From: Deltaproteobacteria bacterium CG11_big_fil_rev_8_21_14_0_20_47_16
GTDB lineage: Bacteria > UBA10199 > GCA-002796325 > 1-14-0-20-47-16
Length of the DNA stretch: 64,000 nucleotides
Direction: 5' to 3'
Assembly (NCBI GenBank): GCA_002796325.1
Contig: PCXA01000007.1
Span: 145,780 to 209,779, forward strand
In this document: one piece after another, positions 1 to 55,023 of the stretch
Numbering within the stretch: position 1 is the first letter of the stretch
How the letters are laid out: each line of letters opens with the position of its first letter
Notes under the pieces: generated by a model
Database searches by the model: none
What the model was told of the DNA's origin: nothing
What the model saw: only the letters and a program-made list of their open reading frames with translations
Program-made: the position numbers and the translations under genes

Positions 1-1004
1 ATTGTGGCGCGTGTTTCATCATCGCTGACCACACAACCTGAAATCATAGTGGCCATCTTGGTCGCATCTTGATCAAATAAATGGCTTAAGCGTTCAAAGT
101 TACTGGGGTTACCCACGTCCATTGCGTTGGAAATGGTGTGGTGTGTCGCGTGTGGTGTGAATGTTCCTGATTGCAAATAGCGGGGAAGTGCGTCGTTGGC
201 ATTGCTGGCGGCGACAAAATGCGCAATTGGTGCACCCATACGCTGGGCGATGACTCCGGCAGTTAAGTTGCCAATATTTCCCGTGGGCACAACGATGACA
301 CAGTTAGGGTGTTGAAGAGCTGCAAACCAATAATAGAATGTCTGTGGAATCAGTCGCCCAATGTTGATGGAGTTGGCAGAGGTAAGGTGCCAACCCTGCG
401 GCGCCGGTTGTGTAAGTCGCGCCTTCACTAATCGTTGGCAGTCATCAAATATCCCAGCAACAGAAACGGCCTGCACATTGCCACCCCAAGTGGCAATCTG
501 CTGTTCTTGCACACGACTGATGCGTCCCTGCGGATAGAGAATAATCGTCCGGATTCGTTTTCGGCCATGACATGCTGCAGCCACCGCGCTCCCTGTATCA
601 CCAGAGGTCGCTGTCAATACCAGCGCTTGTTCATTGTCGCGCTCCAAGAGGGTATCAAGGATGCGCATCAAGAATTGTGCAGCAACGTCTTTGAAGCTTA
701 GGCTTGGCCCATGAAAAAGTTCGCAGCAGGATTGGTTGTTGCCCAAGTCCTGTAGTGGGATGTCGAATGTGTAAGCGTCGTGTGTAATCTTTTTTAGAAG
801 AGTCGCATCTAAATTGTCTTGAAACCAAATAGCAGCCAATTGTTCTGCAAGCTGCGCAAACGAAAGTCCCTTCCAGTGTTGCCATGTGGATTTTGCGATA
901 GCTGGAATTTGTTCTGGTAAGTACAATCCGCCATCAGGTGCCAGCCCCTGAAGTAGGGCGGTCTTTAAATCGCTCACTGCACCACGCGTGCTGATGTATT
1001 TCAT
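1..1004 (-). CDS. thrC: Threonine synthase, 3' end outside window (C-terminus missing)
   Basis: Manual reverse translation from ATG at 1004..1002 gives MKYISTRGAVSDLKTALLQGLAPDGGLYLPEQIP..., with FKD, TSGDTGSAVA and SNAMDVGNPSNFERL motifs; open frame continues to position 1. Not in ORF track because no stop in window. Start overlaps thrB stop (ATGA). Confidence 0.85.
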   Translation of the reverse strand, partial: MKYISTRGAVSDLKTALLQGLAPDGGLYLPEQIPAIAKSTWQHWKGLSFAQLAEQLAAIWFQDNLDATLLKKITHDAYTFDIPLQDLGNNQSCCELFHGPSLSFKDVAAQFLMRILDTLLERDNEQALVLTATSGDTGSAVAAACHGRKRIRTIILYPQGRISRVQEQQIATWGGNVQAVSVAGIFDDCQRLVKARLTQPAPQGWHLTSANSINIGRLIPQTFYYWFAALQHPNCVIVVPTGNIGNLTAGVIAQRMGAPIAHFVAASNANDALPRYLQSGTFTPHATHHTISNAMDVGNPSNFERLSHLFDQDATKMATMISGCVVSDDETRAT

Positions 1005-5039: not shown

Positions 5040-5855
5040 ATGAAAAAAATTATCGTCAAACTCACACTCATCACTCTTGTTGTAACACTTGCAGCTTGTT
5101 CTTCAACACCTGTGCGACGTTCTGCCAAGGAAACATGGACTGACACCATGACGGCTTCCAAAGTGCGCTACAAACTGATGAAGGATAAAGAGGTACACAA
5201 AGGTCGCATGCATGTTGAAGTTTATCGAGGTGAGGTAACTCTGACGGGACGCGCTGCAACTGAAGCTGAGAAGGCCCGGGCGGAAACACTGGCCAAATCT
5301 GTCAAACATGTGACCGGTGTTGAAAATTATGTCCATATCGTGGGTACTGGCAAGCCAGATTCCGCCGTTGCAGTTGCTGCGCCAATTACTCCAGTTGTAA
5401 CAGATACCATTACGGAAAAGGTGCTCGTTAAAGAAGAGGTTGTGGTCTCCGATAATGCTATTGCAGCCGTTCCAACGGTTCGAGAATCCACTGGTAAGCC
5501 TGCACGTTTGATCCCAGGTCGTAAGGCAAGTGAGCCCAAAAAGGTGGCCAGTCGTACCAAGGCACCTGCTAAAATCGGCGAAGATGACAAACCTGCGGCT
5601 ATTCGCAAAGTGCCAGCTGAACCGGCTCAGGTGGTGGGGCGGTCATCAACCGGTCTGCCTTGGGATGGTGAGGTTTACGAGGATGATACCTCCAGTGTGA
5701 CACCAGTAGCGGCCTCAAAGGCCCCTGCTGAGGCAATTGCCACCCGGACGCCAGCCAAGTCTAAAGTCGATAATAAGGCCCCAGTTAGTCAGCCGACGGA
5801 TGATTTGGCCGCGGAAGCCGCTCAGGAGCTCGAAAAACTCCGTTCCAAACGCTAA
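5040..5855 (+). CDS. BON-domain (OsmY-like) lipoprotein with Ala/Pro/Lys-rich tail
   Basis: MKKIIVKLTLITLVVTLAACSS lipobox signal; ORF track start 4680 is an antisense extension into rsmD. Confidence 0.65.
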   Translation: MKKIIVKLTLITLVVTLAACSSTPVRRSAKETWTDTMTASKVRYKLMKDKEVHKGRMHVEVYRGEVTLTGRAATEAEKARAETLAKSVKHVTGVENYVHIVGTGKPDSAVAVAAPITPVVTDTITEKVLVKEEVVVSDNAIAAVPTVRESTGKPARLIPGRKASEPKKVASRTKAPAKIGEDDKPAAIRKVPAEPAQVVGRSSTGLPWDGEVYEDDTSSVTPVAASKAPAEAIATRTPAKSKVDNKAPVSQPTDDLAAEAAQELEKLRSKR

Positions 5856-15553: not shown

Positions 15554-15582
15554 TGGGCTAGCCAATCGTTTGGCATAAAAAA

Positions 15583-15609
15583 AGGCCCCCAAAAATGGGG
15601 GCCTTTTTT
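15583..15609. terminator. Bidirectional intrinsic terminator
   Basis: AGGCCCCC-aaaaat-GGGGGCCT stem-loop flanked by an A-run and a T-run. Confidence 0.7.
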
Positions 15610-25955: not shown

Positions 25956-26465
25956 TTACAAAAATCCAATCTTGCGTTTGGATGTGGATGTGGGTGGTGT
26001 CATGAGTTGGCGCAGGGCATCGAAGACCACCTTGAATTTCTGATCGTAACCTTTCTCCATTTTGTGCAACTTTTTCGCGAGGTCTTTGTGGTTGATGAGG
26101 AGTTGTCTTAATTTTACAAATGTTCGCATGATCTCAATATTGACCTGTATGGCGCGTCGGCTATTTAAAACGCTGGAGAGCATGGCGACACCCTGTTCTG
26201 TAAAGACATATGGAATATACTTTCGGTGTTCTCCGCGGCCCACTTTTAAGGTCGCAATTTGCGACCTTAAAAGTGCAACTTCTTGATTATTAAGGGAAAA
26301 CATGAAATCCTCAGGAAAACGCTCAATATTGCGCCTTACCTGCTCATTGAGCCGCTTCGTGGGGACTCCGTAAAGTGTGGCCAAATCGCTATCCAACATC
26401 ACCTTGTGCCCCCGAATCAACAAGATCTTCTGTTCAATATGTTCCTCTGGTAGCAATGCTGTCAT
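25956..26465 (-). CDS. ORF6N (KilA-N-like) domain DNA-binding protein
   Basis: IRGHKVMLDSDLATLYGVPTKRLNEQVRRNIERFPEDFMF; stop abuts convergent gcdH. Confidence 0.75.
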   Translation of the reverse strand: MTALLPEEHIEQKILLIRGHKVMLDSDLATLYGVPTKRLNEQVRRNIERFPEDFMFSLNNQEVALLRSQIATLKVGRGEHRKYIPYVFTEQGVAMLSSVLNSRRAIQVNIEIMRTFVKLRQLLINHKDLAKKLHKMEKGYDQKFKVVFDALRQLMTPPTSTSKRKIGFL

Positions 26466-26595
26466 CTGACACCTCCGAAAGTCTTTCAGCAAAAACAATG
26501 CCAGCGCCTAATGATCGATGTATGCAACTTGAAGTGCGATGCTGTTGCAAAACTGAACAAGTCGCTCTAAAAAGTGCTCATCAAAGGGGGATTCA

Positions 26596-32670: not shown

Positions 32671-33384
32671 ATGCAATCAAAAATAAAATGGGTTGTTTGT
32701 ATGGCTGCAATGATGATGATCTCTGGCACGGCACATGCCTACAAAATTAAATCAAAGTCGATTACAATCAATAAACCCAAAGAGCGTTATGAAGTGTCTG
32801 TGTCATATCCCGTTATTAAGGGATTAAAGAATAAAGATATCGAAGCGACACTGAATCAAACTATGTTGGATTGGGCACAAGCGCGCATTACCCAGTTCGA
32901 CAAGGTAATTGCAGAGATGCAAAGTGAAGGAATGGGTTCTAATTTGCCAGGTGAAAATGCGCTCAGTATTACATTTAATGCAAGGGTAAAGAGTGACGTG
33001 ATGTTGGGCATTTCGTGGGATGTGTATAAAAATTTTATTGGCAATGCACACCCGAGCGAAGTGCTAAATCCAATTATGTATAATCTTGAAACGGGCAAGG
33101 TCATTGCGTTGGCCGACCTTTTTAAACCCGGGAGCCATTATCTCAAGCGACTATCTAAAATTTGTACGGAACGTCTCAATGAAAGTTTTGCAGGCTCGGG
33201 CTTTACATTATTTGAAGACGGACTCAAACCCACTACTGAAAATTACGCCAACTTCTTAGTGCGACCCGAAGGGCTCTATTTCGTATTCAACCCTTACCAG
33301 GTTGCTCCGTACGTTGCTGGGATTCAAGAAGTGGTCATTCCTTATCCATTCCTACAAGATATTTTGTTGACTAAGTATCAGTAG
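32671..33384 (+). CDS. DUF3298/DUF4163 (RsiV-like) secreted protein
   Basis: Signal peptide MQSKIKWVVCMAAMMMISGTAHA; domain by recall. Confidence 0.6.
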   Translation: MQSKIKWVVCMAAMMMISGTAHAYKIKSKSITINKPKERYEVSVSYPVIKGLKNKDIEATLNQTMLDWAQARITQFDKVIAEMQSEGMGSNLPGENALSITFNARVKSDVMLGISWDVYKNFIGNAHPSEVLNPIMYNLETGKVIALADLFKPGSHYLKRLSKICTERLNESFAGSGFTLFEDGLKPTTENYANFLVRPEGLYFVFNPYQVAPYVAGIQEVVIPYPFLQDILLTKYQ

Positions 33385-33424
33385 GGCATCGCCTAAACCT
33401 TGCATTTTTAGCGTATCTATATAT

Positions 33425-33467
33425 AAACGCCACGAGAGTTGATCGAAGGAGACCGCGTGGCGTTTTT
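33425..33467 (+). promoter_or_regulatory. Perfect 10-bp stem hairpin (AAACGCCACG / CGTGGCGTTT) with 21-nt loop and T-run, enclosing the aminotransferase RBS and start
   Basis: Read directly; loop holds GAAGGAG, stem holds the GTG start candidate at 33457. Confidence 0.5.
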
Positions 33468-34776
33468 GCATCCCCACATTAAAACCAAACTTCCCGGACC
33501 TAAATCCAAAAGGGTCCTGGCACTCGATGAAAAATACGTCTCACCGTCTTATACCCGTAGCTATCCTCTTGTTGCCAAAAGTGGTCGTGGGTCGTTTATT
33601 GAAGACATGGACGGCAACGTCTTTCTCGATTTTACATCCGGCATTGCAGTGACTGCGTCAGGCCATTGTCACCCACGTGTGGTAAAGGCGATTCAAGAGC
33701 AAGCCGCCAAACTCATTCACATGTCAGGCACCGATTTTTATTATCCCCAACAAGCAGAGCTTGCTAAGCGCCTGGTGAACCTGTTTCCTGGTGGAAAGGG
33801 CAGTGGTAAGGCATTCTTGACCAATTCGGGCGCAGAATCCGTCGAAGCCGCATTAAAGCTCGCCCGCTGGGTGACCAAACGTCCGCAGATCATTTCATTT
33901 TTGGGGGCTTTCCATGGGCGTACCATGGGCGCGTTGTCCGTGACTGGGAGTAAAATCACACAAAAGGAACGATTCTTTCCGCTCGTTCCAGGTGTGACGC
34001 ATGTGCCGTATCCGGATCCGTATCACACGCCCAAAGGGATGACACCGGATGACTATACCAACTTTTGTTTAGACTGGATTTCTGAACGCATTTTCAAAAC
34101 GATTGTGCCACCATCTGAAGTTGCTGCAATTATTGTCGAACCCATTCAAGGTGAGGGTGGATATATTGTCCCTCAAAATAGTTTCTTCAAAGGATTGCGC
34201 AAAATTTGTGATGCACACGGCATTTTGCTGATTGTTGATGAAGTACAAAGCGGAATTGGACGCACGGGCAAAATGTTTGCAATCGAACACACGGGTGTAA
34301 CACCGGATATTATTTGTATCGCCAAGGGCATTGCTTCAGGATTGCCGTTGGGTGCCATGATCGCGCGCGGGTCTATTATGCATTGGACAACCGGTGCACA
34401 CGCCAACACATTTGGGGGTAACCCTTTGGCCTGTGTGGCGGCAACCGCCACGTTGGATTTGTTAGATGAAGGCATGATGAAAAATGCGGCCAAGCAAGGT
34501 GAGTATTTGATGAAAAATTTGCAGGGCATGATGCGTCGCCACTCTGAAATTGGAGATGTGCGGGGCAGAGGCCTCATGGTGGGTGCTGAAATCGTGTCTG
34601 ACCGCAAACGTAAGACCCGCGCACCCAAACGGCGGAACGACATTGTCGATAAGGCGTTTCGCAAGGGGCTTCTGCTTTTAGGCTGTGGCCCCAATACCAT
34701 TCGGTTTGCGCCACCGCTTTCTGTGACGCGTGCCGAAGTGGATATGGCACTCAAAATATTTGAGGCATGTTTATGA
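33457..34776 (+). CDS. Class III PLP-dependent aminotransferase (GabT- or lysine-aminotransferase-like)
   Basis: KLPGPKS N-terminus and DEVQSGIGRTGKMFA lysine region; start is GTG 33457 or TTG 33439. Confidence 0.85.
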   Translation: MAFLHPHIKTKLPGPKSKRVLALDEKYVSPSYTRSYPLVAKSGRGSFIEDMDGNVFLDFTSGIAVTASGHCHPRVVKAIQEQAAKLIHMSGTDFYYPQQAELAKRLVNLFPGGKGSGKAFLTNSGAESVEAALKLARWVTKRPQIISFLGAFHGRTMGALSVTGSKITQKERFFPLVPGVTHVPYPDPYHTPKGMTPDDYTNFCLDWISERIFKTIVPPSEVAAIIVEPIQGEGGYIVPQNSFFKGLRKICDAHGILLIVDEVQSGIGRTGKMFAIEHTGVTPDIICIAKGIASGLPLGAMIARGSIMHWTTGAHANTFGGNPLACVAATATLDLLDEGMMKNAAKQGEYLMKNLQGMMRRHSEIGDVRGRGLMVGAEIVSDRKRKTRAPKRRNDIVDKAFRKGLLLLGCGPNTIRFAPPLSVTRAEVDMALKIFEACL

Positions 34777-36363: not shown

Positions 36364-37776
36364 ATGTTTGGTCGCTTAGCTGTAAATCGCGATCAGGTGG
36401 ACGAATGTCGCAATAAGGCGCGCCTTATTGCCGAGCATATCCGCAAGATTGCAGAACATCACACAACCCTATCTGTTGAACAAGCCACATTGCGTGCGTT
36501 GGGTGCAGCAGGGAATTCACCGCAACCCATCATTCATGCCATTGCCAAAAAACTCGGTCCACAGTCGCTTAAGCTAGGTGTGGCGGGTTGGTTGGGGCGC
36601 ATCATGGTGGCACACAAATTGTCTCCGGAAAAGGCAGCTCAATTTTTAGCGCATCATGGATTGGGTAAGCCTGATTCTTTAAAGGATGTCCCCTGGAGTC
36701 AGGCACAGCGGGTGGTGCGCGAGTCTTTTGATAAATGGTCACGTAGTTTGCCGAAGCGCAGCAATGGGCGCATGAGGAATGGACAGTTTCGAGTGGCGGT
36801 ACAGGTGGAAACGGGCGACGCTCAAAAAGATTTAGCGCAGCTTTACTCTGCTTGGAAGGAATCTGATTTGGCCGTGGTGCAGGTGCCATATGGTTTGTCG
36901 GCGGATGGTATTGCCTCTCAGCGAGGTGGATTTATTTTTAAGAAGGGTTATCCTTTGCAAAAACAGATGCGTCGGGCGGTAGCAAAAAATGGTTCCGACG
37001 AAAAGTTGGTTTGCTGGGCAGGGGCAATGGCGCCTGAAACCGCAGTTGTGGCCGCTGAAATCCCTAGAACTCGTATGCGTGTGGACCCGATTTCCCGCAT
37101 TCATCAGGAAAAGATGGATCCACGCAAGGCTGTTATCGAATACAATATGATTTTGCGATTGTCGGCACGCACAGGTCTGCGATTGCACAATAATTTACAA
37201 GCATGGACTAGTTCCGCGTACGAAACCCACTTTTATCAAGCGATAGCCATGCAAATTGTTCTAGAGCAGTGGCTTATGTATTATCGCGGTGAACCCGAAG
37301 CCCAAGTAATTGTCTTGCCTGAGATCGCATCTCAAAATGGGGTACCCGATTTGGTTTCTGCGTTGGCGCGTAATCAATTGTGTCGCGAAATTTTTCCCCA
37401 GTCTGAAATGTGGCAACACACAGATGCCCCAAGTGCTGCATGGGACTCTGGTGTTGCGGCTGTTATTGGTCAAAGTGGTGTGATGGTGCCACAGACTGTT
37501 GATCGCAAATCAATTGCTGCGCTAGGAGCGGTATTCAAGCCACTTGCGTATGAATGTCAATTCAGCGATCACGGTCAACTCAGTCGTCTAATGCATACAT
37601 TGCTCGATCGCAGTATGAAGGAATTGCTTCGCCTATATCGCAACACCTGGAGTAAAGTTGTTCAACAGGATCATAGTGGTTTATTTGCCATGTCCAAGTT
37701 CACACATGGCAGTGATACTGTAATTGAAAAGGATCGCCGTTACTGGAACCCAATGGAAGAATGGTTCGGAGGTTAA
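36364..37776 (+). CDS. Lysine 5,6-aminomutase alpha-subunit (KamD)-family protein, orphan
   Basis: N-terminal EHHTTLSVEQATLRALG, internal CREIFPQ and C-terminal KDRRYWNPM resemble KamD motifs as recalled; no B12-binding beta subunit adjacent. Confidence 0.5.
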   Translation: MFGRLAVNRDQVDECRNKARLIAEHIRKIAEHHTTLSVEQATLRALGAAGNSPQPIIHAIAKKLGPQSLKLGVAGWLGRIMVAHKLSPEKAAQFLAHHGLGKPDSLKDVPWSQAQRVVRESFDKWSRSLPKRSNGRMRNGQFRVAVQVETGDAQKDLAQLYSAWKESDLAVVQVPYGLSADGIASQRGGFIFKKGYPLQKQMRRAVAKNGSDEKLVCWAGAMAPETAVVAAEIPRTRMRVDPISRIHQEKMDPRKAVIEYNMILRLSARTGLRLHNNLQAWTSSAYETHFYQAIAMQIVLEQWLMYYRGEPEAQVIVLPEIASQNGVPDLVSALARNQLCREIFPQSEMWQHTDAPSAAWDSGVAAVIGQSGVMVPQTVDRKSIAALGAVFKPLAYECQFSDHGQLSRLMHTLLDRSMKELLRLYRNTWSKVVQQDHSGLFAMSKFTHGSDTVIEKDRRYWNPMEEWFGG

Positions 37777-37777
37777 T

Positions 37778-38704
37778 ATGTCCGGAGTTGGCATTATTTT
37801 AAATCCGCATTCGCGTAGTAACCGCCGCAATCCCGGTCGTGTCAGGCGTTTGGGGTTCATTGTAGGTGATAAAGGGTCGTGCCACGCGACCAAAGATATT
37901 TTGGATGTGGGGCGAATTGCGCAGCAATTTAAGGAGCGTAATGTAGAGATATTGGGGATTAGTGGTGGTGATGGTACCAATCATTGTACGTTGACGCGTG
38001 TGCTTCAAGTGTATGGCGACGCCAAGCTACCTAAAATTGCATTCCTACGTGGTGGGACCATGAATAATGTGGCAAATTGCATTGGAATCAAAGGAACGCC
38101 CGAGCAAATTTTAGCTAATTTGATTAGTAAGCATGACGCAGGTGAAGAATTTAAGACGGTTGAGCTGGATATGATGACTGTGAATGGAGAATATGGATTT
38201 TTGTTTGGTGTTGGTGTGGTGGAGCGCTTTATGGAACATTATTACCGAGTGAAGGGATCAATGGTTTGGGCGGGTGTTTTGCTTGCACGTTGCATTCTTG
38301 CGCAGATTTTTAGGACACCATTTATCGATGAAATGTTTGAACGCTTTGACTGTAAAATTGAAGTAGATGGTGAGGTGTGGCCGTATAAAAATTATAATAT
38401 CATCCATGCCGGAACGGTTGAAACCTATGGATTAGGTTTCGATCCCTTCTATCGTGCACGTGAAAGGGAAGGGCACACACATATTATCGGATCGTCTGTT
38501 TTGCCATCCGATATTGGTTGGTCGCTCCCTAAGATCTGGATGCGCAAACCCACAAACTGTGAAAATGAATTAAGTTCTGTGGCAAAGCGTGTTGTAATCA
38601 CGTTTTCTGAGCCTCAGCCATATTTTGTAGATGGGGATATCAAAGCACCTACCACCCGCATTGAAATATCCTGTGATAAGCGAATTAGTTGTATTGTGAG
38701 TTAA
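37778..38704 (+). CDS. DAGK_cat-family lipid kinase (diacylglycerol / sphingosine / ceramide kinase-like)
   Basis: GGDGT motif; GGAGG RBS; start 2 nt after KamD-like stop. Confidence 0.7.
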   Translation: MSGVGIILNPHSRSNRRNPGRVRRLGFIVGDKGSCHATKDILDVGRIAQQFKERNVEILGISGGDGTNHCTLTRVLQVYGDAKLPKIAFLRGGTMNNVANCIGIKGTPEQILANLISKHDAGEEFKTVELDMMTVNGEYGFLFGVGVVERFMEHYYRVKGSMVWAGVLLARCILAQIFRTPFIDEMFERFDCKIEVDGEVWPYKNYNIIHAGTVETYGLGFDPFYRAREREGHTHIIGSSVLPSDIGWSLPKIWMRKPTNCENELSSVAKRVVITFSEPQPYFVDGDIKAPTTRIEISCDKRISCIVS

Positions 38705-44161: not shown

Positions 44162-44764
44162 TCAACAGTTTGAAGAACCTGGATGTTTTGCCACGGGCAA
44201 GATGCCTTCTTGTACTAAAACATCACGCAGCCGCTGGTCGCCAGTTGCTAAAAAGCGCTCATAGCATTCTAAAAGATTAATATCAGTCAAGTTGCGGCCT
44301 GCCTTACCAACGTCGTTTACAACATCTACTAAATGACGAAACTTAATGCCCATCTCTTCAAAAACCTCCGAAAATCCACGCTGTCCCGGCATGGACGAGG
44401 CTAGGGTAAGGTAAGCACCACCGCCCATTCGGATATAATAGTCGAGTGTTTTAAAGCGACGAGTGGCACGTTCAGGAAAAATGCCAGCCACAAACAGGGC
44501 GTTATCTCCCAAAAACTTAAGGGTACGAACCCGTGTTGCGGTATCCCCATGGACGGCGCGTTCTAGCAGCAATGCCAGAGGTGTGTCTTCTGGTTGACCA
44601 CCAACACAATCAAATGCCTTGTCTGTTTTTTTGAGCTCAGAGAGTAGATTGACGATATAGAATTCGCTGTCTTCGGTGAGCGAGATCTTATGTTTTACAA
44701 TGGCCCTTCGGACGAGGTCCCTAAAGAATGACAACAGACTACTGTTTTCAACGACATCTGCCAT
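44162..44764 (-). CDS. Hypothetical cytoplasmic protein (200 aa)
   Basis: Codirectional ORF with no recognisable motif; heads the amgK-murU gene string. Confidence 0.45.
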   Translation of the reverse strand: MADVVENSSLLSFFRDLVRRAIVKHKISLTEDSEFYIVNLLSELKKTDKAFDCVGGQPEDTPLALLLERAVHGDTATRVRTLKFLGDNALFVAGIFPERATRRFKTLDYYIRMGGGAYLTLASSMPGQRGFSEVFEEMGIKFRHLVDVVNDVGKAGRNLTDINLLECYERFLATGDQRLRDVLVQEGILPVAKHPGSSNC

Positions 44765-44805
44765 ACTGCTAAATTTTAAAGATTATTTGCCCTAGTGTCA
44801 ATTGG

Positions 44806-47145: not shown

Positions 47146-47297
47146 TGTTTTTTCTAAGCAACTTTTTCCGTAACCAACCGATAACCTACATGAGTGAGGA
47201 TGAATACAAAAAAACACCAAAAGTAAATGACTTGGTGGGGCACGGGGGAAGGAGATACGCCCCATCCCATAATCCCCCACTCCTTCTCCCAAACAAA

Positions 47298-47332
47298 ACG
47301 CCTTCGCTTATGCGAGGGCGTTTTTGTTTTTT
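47298..47332. terminator. Intrinsic terminator downstream of proC
   Basis: ACGCCTTCGC-ttat-GCGAGGGCGT stem followed by T-rich run on both strands. Confidence 0.55.
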
Positions 47333-53986: not shown

Positions 53987-54023
53987 AAAAAGGCCAACGC
54001 CCTAATAGGGGCTTGGCCTTTTT
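53987..54023. terminator. Stem-loop / terminator between the hypothetical genes and tRNA-Phe
   Basis: AAAAAGGCCAA ... TTGGCCTTTTT stem with inner CCCT/AGGG helix; U-run on both strands. Confidence 0.5.
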
Positions 54024-54942: not shown

Positions 54943-54962
54943 TTGTCCCCCCAAATGAGAAG

Positions 54963-54996
54963 GGCCCGTTGAATTACCATTCAACGGGCCTTTTTT
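54963..54996 (+). terminator. Intrinsic terminator after carD
   Basis: 12-bp stem GGCCCGTTGAAT / ATTCAACGGGCC, 4-nt loop, TTTTTT. Confidence 0.85.
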
Positions 54997-55023
54997 ATTG
55001 CGTTTCATGAGCGACCGCTCTAG

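Follow-up and report, generated by a model that had tools for sequence, protein, structure and literature searches.

A structurally conserved hairpin over an aminotransferase start site as a candidate insulator between two co-directional operons

Known fold-back systems and the locus under study

In IS10, the transcript from the element's own promoter starts inside the repeat and is made without the 5' arm, while transcripts that arrive from outside fold up and are not translated. IS50 has an analogous protection against outside transcription. Fold-back inhibition of the IS10/Tn10 transposase was reportedly described by Davis, Simons and Kleckner in 1985. The left end of IS200 carries a Rho-independent terminator against impinging transcription and, separately, a stable stem-loop in the 5' untranslated region (UTR) of tnpA that hides a near-consensus Shine-Dalgarno (SD) sequence (PMC4513863).

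Here we describe a hairpin that lies between two co-directional groups of genes in an uncultured delta-like lineage. The assignment to this lineage comes from ValS, for which the closest named matches, 56%-60% identical, belong to metagenome-assembled genomes labelled Deltaproteobacteria. Positions refer to the window, by which we mean the whole 64-kb stretch of DNA that was analysed (Table 1). The upstream cluster, on the plus strand, encodes a PAS histidine kinase, a TPM-domain protein and a PdaC/DUF3298 protein, with 13 nt between genes. The DUF3298 gene is the last of the cluster and ends with a TAG stop codon at 33382-33384. The hairpin begins 41 nt past this stop codon, and the whole intergenic gap is 72 nt.

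The downstream group begins with a class-III aminotransferase gene, whose product scored 641 bits against NF004426 (cut-off 552) and which is the first of a four-gene operon. The second gene encodes an aldehyde dehydrogenase and overlaps the aminotransferase gene by ATGA. The third gene, of 470 aa, showed a weak partial match to the alpha subunit of lysine 5,6-aminomutase (58 bits versus a cut-off of 600), and we found no beta subunit of this enzyme near it. The fourth gene encodes a lipid-kinase-like protein. The third and fourth genes together span window positions 36364-38704, and the order of aminotransferase, aldehyde dehydrogenase, aminomutase-like and kinase-like genes recurs at a related locus, L084, which marks this as a conserved four-gene operon. 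The aminotransferase likely starts at GTG 33457, based on the public 439-aa gene call, the 5-nt spacing between AAGGAG and this GTG, and an alignment with the N-terminus of a relative (L088) that begins GTG GCA TTG. An alternative start, TTG 33466, abuts the stem.

Table 1. Features of the locus (window positions) and hairpins of the related loci.
Feature	Position	Strand	Loop	Details
PdaC/DUF3298 gene	32671-33384	+		237 aa (public gene call); Pfam PF13739 and PF11738
Promoter-like motif (proposed)	33400-33427	+		TTGCATTTTTAGCGTATCTATATATAA(A); -35 TTGCAT 33400-33405, 16-nt spacer, -10 TATAAA 33422-33427
Hairpin 5' arm	33425-33434	+		AAACGCCACG; takes in the final three bases of the proposed -10 and a G+C-rich discriminator
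Predicted transcription start of the aminotransferase operon	33434	+		+/-2 nt; from geometry, 7 nt after the proposed -10
Hairpin loop	33435-33455	+	21 nt	AGAGTTGATCGAAGGAGACCG; weak internal pairing; read from sequence
Shine-Dalgarno	33446-33451	+		AAGGAG; within the loop
Hairpin 3' arm	33456-33465	+		CGTGGCGTTT; includes the GTG start codon 33457-33459
Class-III aminotransferase gene	33457-34776	+		439 aa; acetylornithine aminotransferase family; Pfam PF00202, NCBIfam NF004426
T-run	33463-33467	+		TTTTT; terminator-type U-tract 3' of the stem's G+C core
L085 hairpin			5 nt	AAGCCCTCCGTC/GACGGGGGGCTT; -27.5 kcal/mol, z -7.8
L086 hairpin			16 nt	AACCCCC/GGGGGTT; -16.5 kcal/mol, z -3.4
L137 hairpin			9 nt	AAGCGCCTCC/GGGGGCGCTT; -17.5 kcal/mol, z -3.3
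L088 hairpin			9 nt	GCCCUUC/GGAGGGU; weaker 7-bp stem; -11.5 kcal/mol, z -0.8 (46-nt segment)

The hairpin and its conservation among relatives

A sequence-only reading of this DNA had described a perfect 10-bp stem with a 21-nt loop and a trailing T-run, placing the ribosome-binding site (RBS) of the aminotransferase gene in the loop and its GTG in the 3' arm, and had proposed RNA folding as a check. All of these elements are present in the sequence, with AAGGAG as the RBS. Seven of the ten pairs are G-C. Three of the five T's of the T-run are part of the stem, and five of the eight nucleotides directly after the outermost G-C pair are T. Folding of positions 33420-33472 (53 nt) with RNAfold returned the same hairpin, 33425-33465, as both minimum free energy (MFE) structure and centroid, at -18.3 kcal/mol. 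For this segment z was -3.5, with one of 200 shuffles equally good; in a 116-nt context, z was merely -0.7.

The perfect 10-bp repeat is not, by itself, beyond chance. Counting perfect inverted repeats with arms of 10 bp or longer and a spacer of 3-30 nt gave five distinct loci in the window, versus an average of about 2.7 per 64 kb in dinucleotide shuffles. The significance of the hairpin derives instead from its position and from its counterparts in relatives. The arm sequence showed no repetition beyond chance within the window, and the promoter-like motif that overlaps the 5' arm is unique there, so we rejected the reading as a repeated or mobile element. Elsewhere, at 26241-26275, a perfect 17-bp palindrome (CACTTTTAAGGTCGCAA-T-TTGCGACCTTAAAAGTG) is the longest perfect inverted repeat of the window; it falls in a possible minus-strand open reading frame (25956-26498), within a 2-kb stretch that has no large open reading frames.

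Relatives were sought in two collections. In a collection of species-representative genomes, the best aminotransferase homologues were only 52%-60% identical, and none carried the motif. A search with the N-terminal 120 aa, aimed at fragmentary relatives, yielded short fragments only. A large protein collection yielded five closer clusters, at 69%-81% protein identity, whose contigs we compared, so that the comparison covers only six independent lineages, the window and five relatives (L084, L085, L086/87, L088 and L137). Four of the five relatives have a hairpin as well, each with its own sequence; it begins at the terminal AA of the motif and extends up to or across the start codon. The L085 stem extends to 16 bp, with AUAU of the motif pairing with AUG, and in L137 the TTG start codon overlaps the stem end. 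The type of base pair differs between loci at motif positions 28, 30, 32, 33 and 35, including flips from G-C to C-G, and a C-G pair is constant across lineages at positions 29, 31 and 34.

The hairpins engage the translation start region in two ways. In L085, L086, L137 and L088, the 3' arm consists of a G-run SD and the 5' arm of a C-rich anti-SD, so the SD is paired. The window differs from these four hairpin-bearing relatives, with its SD in the loop and its start codon in the 3' arm. The AUG is also paired in L085 and L086. In RNAs of L085, L086 and L137 that begin at the predicted transcription start, the G-run SD was additionally predicted to pair with the conserved CCCGGGCCC codons of the K-V-P-G-P motif, at +25 to +40 from the start codon, about 30 nt into the gene. 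Such pairing may mask the SD a second time, more weakly, or may be an artefact of folding.

Stability around the start codon set these loci apart from more distant homologues. Folds of the region from -40 to +12 reached z of -3.3 or lower in four of the six loci that carry the motif; among 75 distant homologue loci none reached -3, and the median was -0.04. No structure is present in the spacer that separates the upstream stop codon from the motif. In L086 this spacer measures about 85 nt, and the hairpin nevertheless lies over the start site. An unstructured upstream spacer together with a hairpin between motif and start indicates that the hairpin position itself is maintained. Where the context of a relative is known, a co-directional gene lies 36-141 nt upstream, and the gap between that gene and the aminotransferase gene contained no second hairpin. 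The tails after the stems are U-rich, with five or six U's in eight nucleotides in four of the five hairpin-bearing loci and three in eight in L088, and the U-tracts of the relatives are interrupted (UUAUGUCUUUG). From this comparison, the hairpin is very probably a selected RNA structure, kept as a structure and not as a sequence.

The promoter-like motif and the predicted transcription start

The sequence-only reading had missed a promoter-like motif that overlaps the 5' arm and changes which RNA the hairpin is expected to act on. A 27-nt pattern, TTGCNNTTTNNNCNNATCTATATATAA (33400-33426), is identical in all five relatives and lies immediately 5' of the aminotransferase gene in each. A search that tolerated three mismatches gave no second copy in the window, and the motif was absent from 80 distant homologue loci and from a locus with 63% identity (L138). 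The gene upstream of the motif differs among the relatives (DUF3298, TPM or an unrelated open reading frame), but the aminotransferase gene always accompanies it. Conservation starts a few bases before TTGC and ends two bases after TAA.

Within the motif, an invariant block at the -35 position and another at the -10 position flank a partly variable spacer (TTGCAT/TTGCAA, 16 nt and TATAAN across the six loci), and this two-block conservation fits a promoter. The proposed -35 matches TTGACA at three to four of six positions. The proposed -10, TATAAN, matches at five of six; position -11 is A, and position -7 varies among A, G and C across the six loci. A consensus promoter and terminator scan called no promoter at the motif, either in the window or in L085, since the -10 does not end in T and the -35 matches at just three to four of six positions. 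We propose that the motif is a sigma-70-type promoter of the aminotransferase operon. Other promoter-like sites in the window look sigma-70-like, and its terminators are canonical. The motif is conserved beyond the contacts of sigma-70, in a run of 12 bases (ATCTATATATAA) and also in TTT and C of the spacer, and another factor may bind there. Three further readings were rejected, the first two by eye: a sigma-54 site (wrong GG-GC spacing), a sigma-32 site (wrong CTTG...CCCCAT spacing) and a minus-strand promoter at TATATATAA (neither a conserved -35 nor a gene on the minus strand).

In a scan across metagenomes, the motif gave 48 unrelated occurrences, none of which encoded a relative of the aminotransferase. 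Three of the 48 (L112, 173-288; L117, 5438-5571; L128, 2305-2440) are on AT-rich contigs of unrelated bacteria, each followed after 12-32 nt by a co-directional tRNA gene; the pattern there takes the form TTGCNNTTT-N6-ATCTATATATAA followed by T, which gives TATAAT. At L123, the pattern lies at 5670-5705 on the reverse strand of the locus (forward 336-362, minus strand), 9 nt before the ATG of an unannotated open reading frame that begins MAKKKAQDE and looks ribosomal-protein-like by eye; this may be another near-leaderless arrangement. Since 27-mers of this type precede tRNA genes and the MAKKKAQDE frame, they are what promoters look like in some bacteria.

Promoter geometry would place the transcription start of the aminotransferase operon within the hairpin. 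The predicted +1, G33434, is the last base of the 5' arm, and the C-G step there is a pyrimidine-purine dinucleotide, as found at the predicted +1 in five of the six loci. In the relatives other than L084, the predicted +1 lies close to where the 5' arm meets the loop. The closest relative, L084 (81% amino acid identity), keeps the motif (223-249) and has neither hairpin nor SD. Its ATG, at 257, lies exactly 7 nt after TATAAG, so the predicted +1 coincides with the first base of the start codon, the arrangement of a leaderless mRNA, and an indel of about 32 nt that bears the hairpin and the SD separates the window from this locus. If the promoter reading holds, L084 would be a natural leaderless variant of the same predicted promoter, and its register, with the ATG at +1, puts the start site of the window at about G33434.

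A similar geometry occurs elsewhere in the window. A near-consensus promoter, TTGACA-17-TAAAAT (11 of 12 positions; 44764-44801, minus strand), ends 8 nt before the ATG of a 200-aa open reading frame (44162-44764, minus strand) that has no Pfam or NCBIfam match. This gene probably has a leaderless or near-leaderless mRNA, which makes leaderless starts plausible in this organism.

Proposed function, alternatives and known systems

Our leading reading, which we put forward tentatively, is that the hairpin acts as a boundary insulator against RNA from the upstream operon, with the aminotransferase operon's own mRNA made without the 5' arm and translatable. The hairpin would mark the boundary between two co-directional operons and overlap the downstream promoter and translation start region. 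The motif at 33400-33426 would drive the operon of aminotransferase, aldehyde dehydrogenase, aminomutase-like and kinase-like genes, and polymerase starting from it at about G33434 would produce an mRNA without the 5' arm, in which the hairpin is unable to form; its 23-nt leader would leave AAGGAG and GTG accessible. RNA from the upstream kinase-TPM-DUF3298 operon would contain both arms and fold into the G+C-rich 10-bp stem followed by UUUUU, which may terminate much of the incoming transcription. In any RNA that reads through, the start codon (in the window) or the SD, paired with the anti-SD 5' arm (in relatives), would be buried. The net effect would be an aminotransferase operon expressed only from its own promoter.

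Calculated folding energies are consistent with this proposal. Opening the region from -13 to +13 was predicted to cost 16-26 kcal/mol in read-through RNA versus 7-12 kcal/mol in RNA from the predicted +1, a gap that is partly an effect of RNA length, as the cost at the hairpin-less L084 also falls, from 7.1 to 2.1 kcal/mol. We used opening energy because the mean unpaired probability of the start region separated long and short RNAs poorly. Stems of -17 to -27 kcal/mol in the only mRNA of the operon would nearly silence the gene, which fits a model in which the operon has its own promoter. Searches for a competing fold or alternative pairing found none, and the hairpin persisted in the MFE structures of long RNAs; the insulator reading explains how the gene could be expressed despite stems of up to -27.5 kcal/mol. 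With the motif as a promoter, the element would act on upstream RNA and would not be an on/off switch for the operon's own mRNA. Of the translational switch suggested in the sequence-only reading, the paired start codon stands, but the operon's own mRNA probably starts at about 33434 and could not form the hairpin.

The rival that survives best, although we consider it rather unlikely, is that the mRNA of the operon starts at or before A33425, from a promoter in another register or further upstream, so that the full hairpin forms in its 5' UTR and blocks translation until a trans-acting factor opens the stem. The opener could be a helicase, or a protein or small RNA (sRNA) with affinity for the conserved AU-rich sequence in its RNA form. 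In four relatives, the SD is paired to a 5' arm that is a classic anti-SD (CCUCC, CCCCC, CCCUUC), in L085 and L086 UUAUGU, which spans the AUG, is paired to AUAUAA of the motif, the conservation of the motif exceeds the needs of a promoter, and the proposed -10 has no T at -7. Stems that sequester the SD in a 5' UTR are also well documented, for example in IS200 tnpA (PMC4513863). However, we found no alternative pairing and no second conserved opener element, and the spacer is unstructured. The arms differ in every lineage, which makes a shared sRNA target unlikely. The ATG of L084 stands at the canonical +1 distance in a locus with neither hairpin nor SD, and for a switch that must open again, stems reaching 16 bp and -27.5 kcal/mol are very strong.

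Less probable still, and in our view distinctly unlikely, is a single long transcription unit in which the hairpin works as a plain or partial terminator. Here the motif would not be a promoter, transcription would come from the promoter of the upstream operon, and the hairpin would impose a fixed drop in downstream expression and stabilise the 3' end of the upstream mRNA, with its overlap of the RBS a by-product of the short gap. The A-tract, G+C stem and T-run do resemble other terminators of this genome, the hairpin follows a stop codon by 41 nt in a gap of just 72 nt, and upstream genes are co-directional in all relatives. Under this reading as under the leading one, the stem, at 10 bp and -18.3 kcal/mol (7-16 bp in relatives), agrees with the G+C-rich stems of about 5-14 bp typical of terminators, and TTTTT supplies the U-tract expected directly after the stem, but the 21-nt loop exceeds the usual 3-8 nt. 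The consensus scan called no terminator at the hairpin of the window, as a consequence of this loop, nor at that of L085. Yet this reading leaves unexplained why an invariant 27-nt motif accompanies the aminotransferase gene. The L086 gap could accommodate a terminator upstream of the motif and the hairpin still covers the start site, RNA that escapes termination would have a locked start site, and L084 is entirely without a hairpin.

We consider it very improbable that the element is a regulated attenuator, a riboswitch or an RNA thermometer that senses a ligand, tRNA, leader peptide or temperature. Terminator-like and RBS-masking features do occur together here, as in expression platforms. 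However, Rfam searches of the whole window at gathering score returned only a tRNA elsewhere, and a search of 33300-33600 at E <= 10 matched no family and gave two chance-level matches. The sole conserved sequence, of about 30 nt, is unstructured and too short for an aptamer, and we found no sensing domain. There is no small open reading frame or leader peptide upstream at the hairpin locus, where the preceding stop codon lies 41 nt from the stem, and no competing structure. The ROSE and fourU types of thermometer do not fit perfect, G+C-rich stems of 10-16 bp at -17 to -27 kcal/mol, and known RNA thermometers are far less stable than these stems. The regulated attenuator that had been proposed from sequence is thus without an Rfam family, a conserved aptamer, a leader peptide or an alternative pairing, while termination and masking of the start, proposed alongside it, are still the preferred readings. 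A chance inverted repeat without function is likewise highly unlikely: the shuffled expectation of about 2.7 perfect 10-bp repeats (spacer up to 30 nt) and the weak z in the 116-nt context would allow it, but independent hairpins stand at the same motif-anchored position in four other lineages versus none of 75 background loci.

A broader interpretation is that the invariant element of 27-30 nt and the freely evolving SD/anti-SD (or start-codon) clamp together form a dedicated regulatory module of this uncultured delta-like lineage. We regard this as unlikely, and the same judgement applies jointly to its two versions. In the first, the module would be a fold-back insulator embedded in a promoter, through which a metabolic operon could be expressed strictly from its own promoter; to our knowledge, this strategy has so far been described for transposases. 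In the second, it would be a translational switch, in which a factor binds the AU-rich RNA and opens the base of the clamp (AUAUAA:UUAUGU in L085 and L086).

If the boundary-insulator reading holds, 68 nt (33400-33467) would pack the terminator of one operon together with the promoter and start site of the next, and the origin of transcription would decide which RNA is translated. For annotation, a hairpin over an RBS is not necessarily a switch on that gene's own mRNA, and the position of the transcription start is needed before a switch is called.

Beyond its neat arrangement, the element is fairly ordinary in type. The window contains canonical, apparently bidirectional terminators at 15578-15609, 47295-47324, 53987-54023 and 54954-54999, each with an A-tract, a G+C stem, a loop of 1-7 nt and a T-tract. 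Like the Rho-independent terminators of this genome, the hairpin has an A-tract, a perfect G+C-rich stem and a T-run and follows a co-directional stop codon. In contrast to their loops of 4-7 nt, its loop is 21 nt, and unlike them it overlaps the promoter-like motif of the next operon and includes its RBS and start codon. The locus also touches on leaderless mRNAs, in which the start codon lies at the +1 of the promoter: L084 is alike, with its ATG 7 nt after the proposed -10 and no SD, and the minus-strand gene at 44764 shows a similar geometry. The aminotransferase gene of the window, unlike these, has a leader and a strong SD, and the leaderless variant serves as a clue to the start site only.

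The two transposon systems offer further parallels. As in IS200, a guard against upstream transcription would be combined with a stem that hides the SD or start codon; IS200 uses two hairpins, with the SD stem in its own 5' UTR, whereas here there is one hairpin that is probably absent from the operon's own mRNA. As in IS10/Tn10, the gene's start region is held in a hairpin by a segment lying 5' of it, and the operon's own transcript would start inside the repeat. The gene of IS10/Tn10 is a transposase, whereas here the hairpin covers the start of a metabolic operon with a predicted promoter and start site; if the reading is true, the logic of IS10 would extend to an amino-acid or amine catabolic operon of an uncultured lineage. 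Unlike that of IS10/Tn10, the hairpin of the window bears a U-run, so termination would be possible as well.
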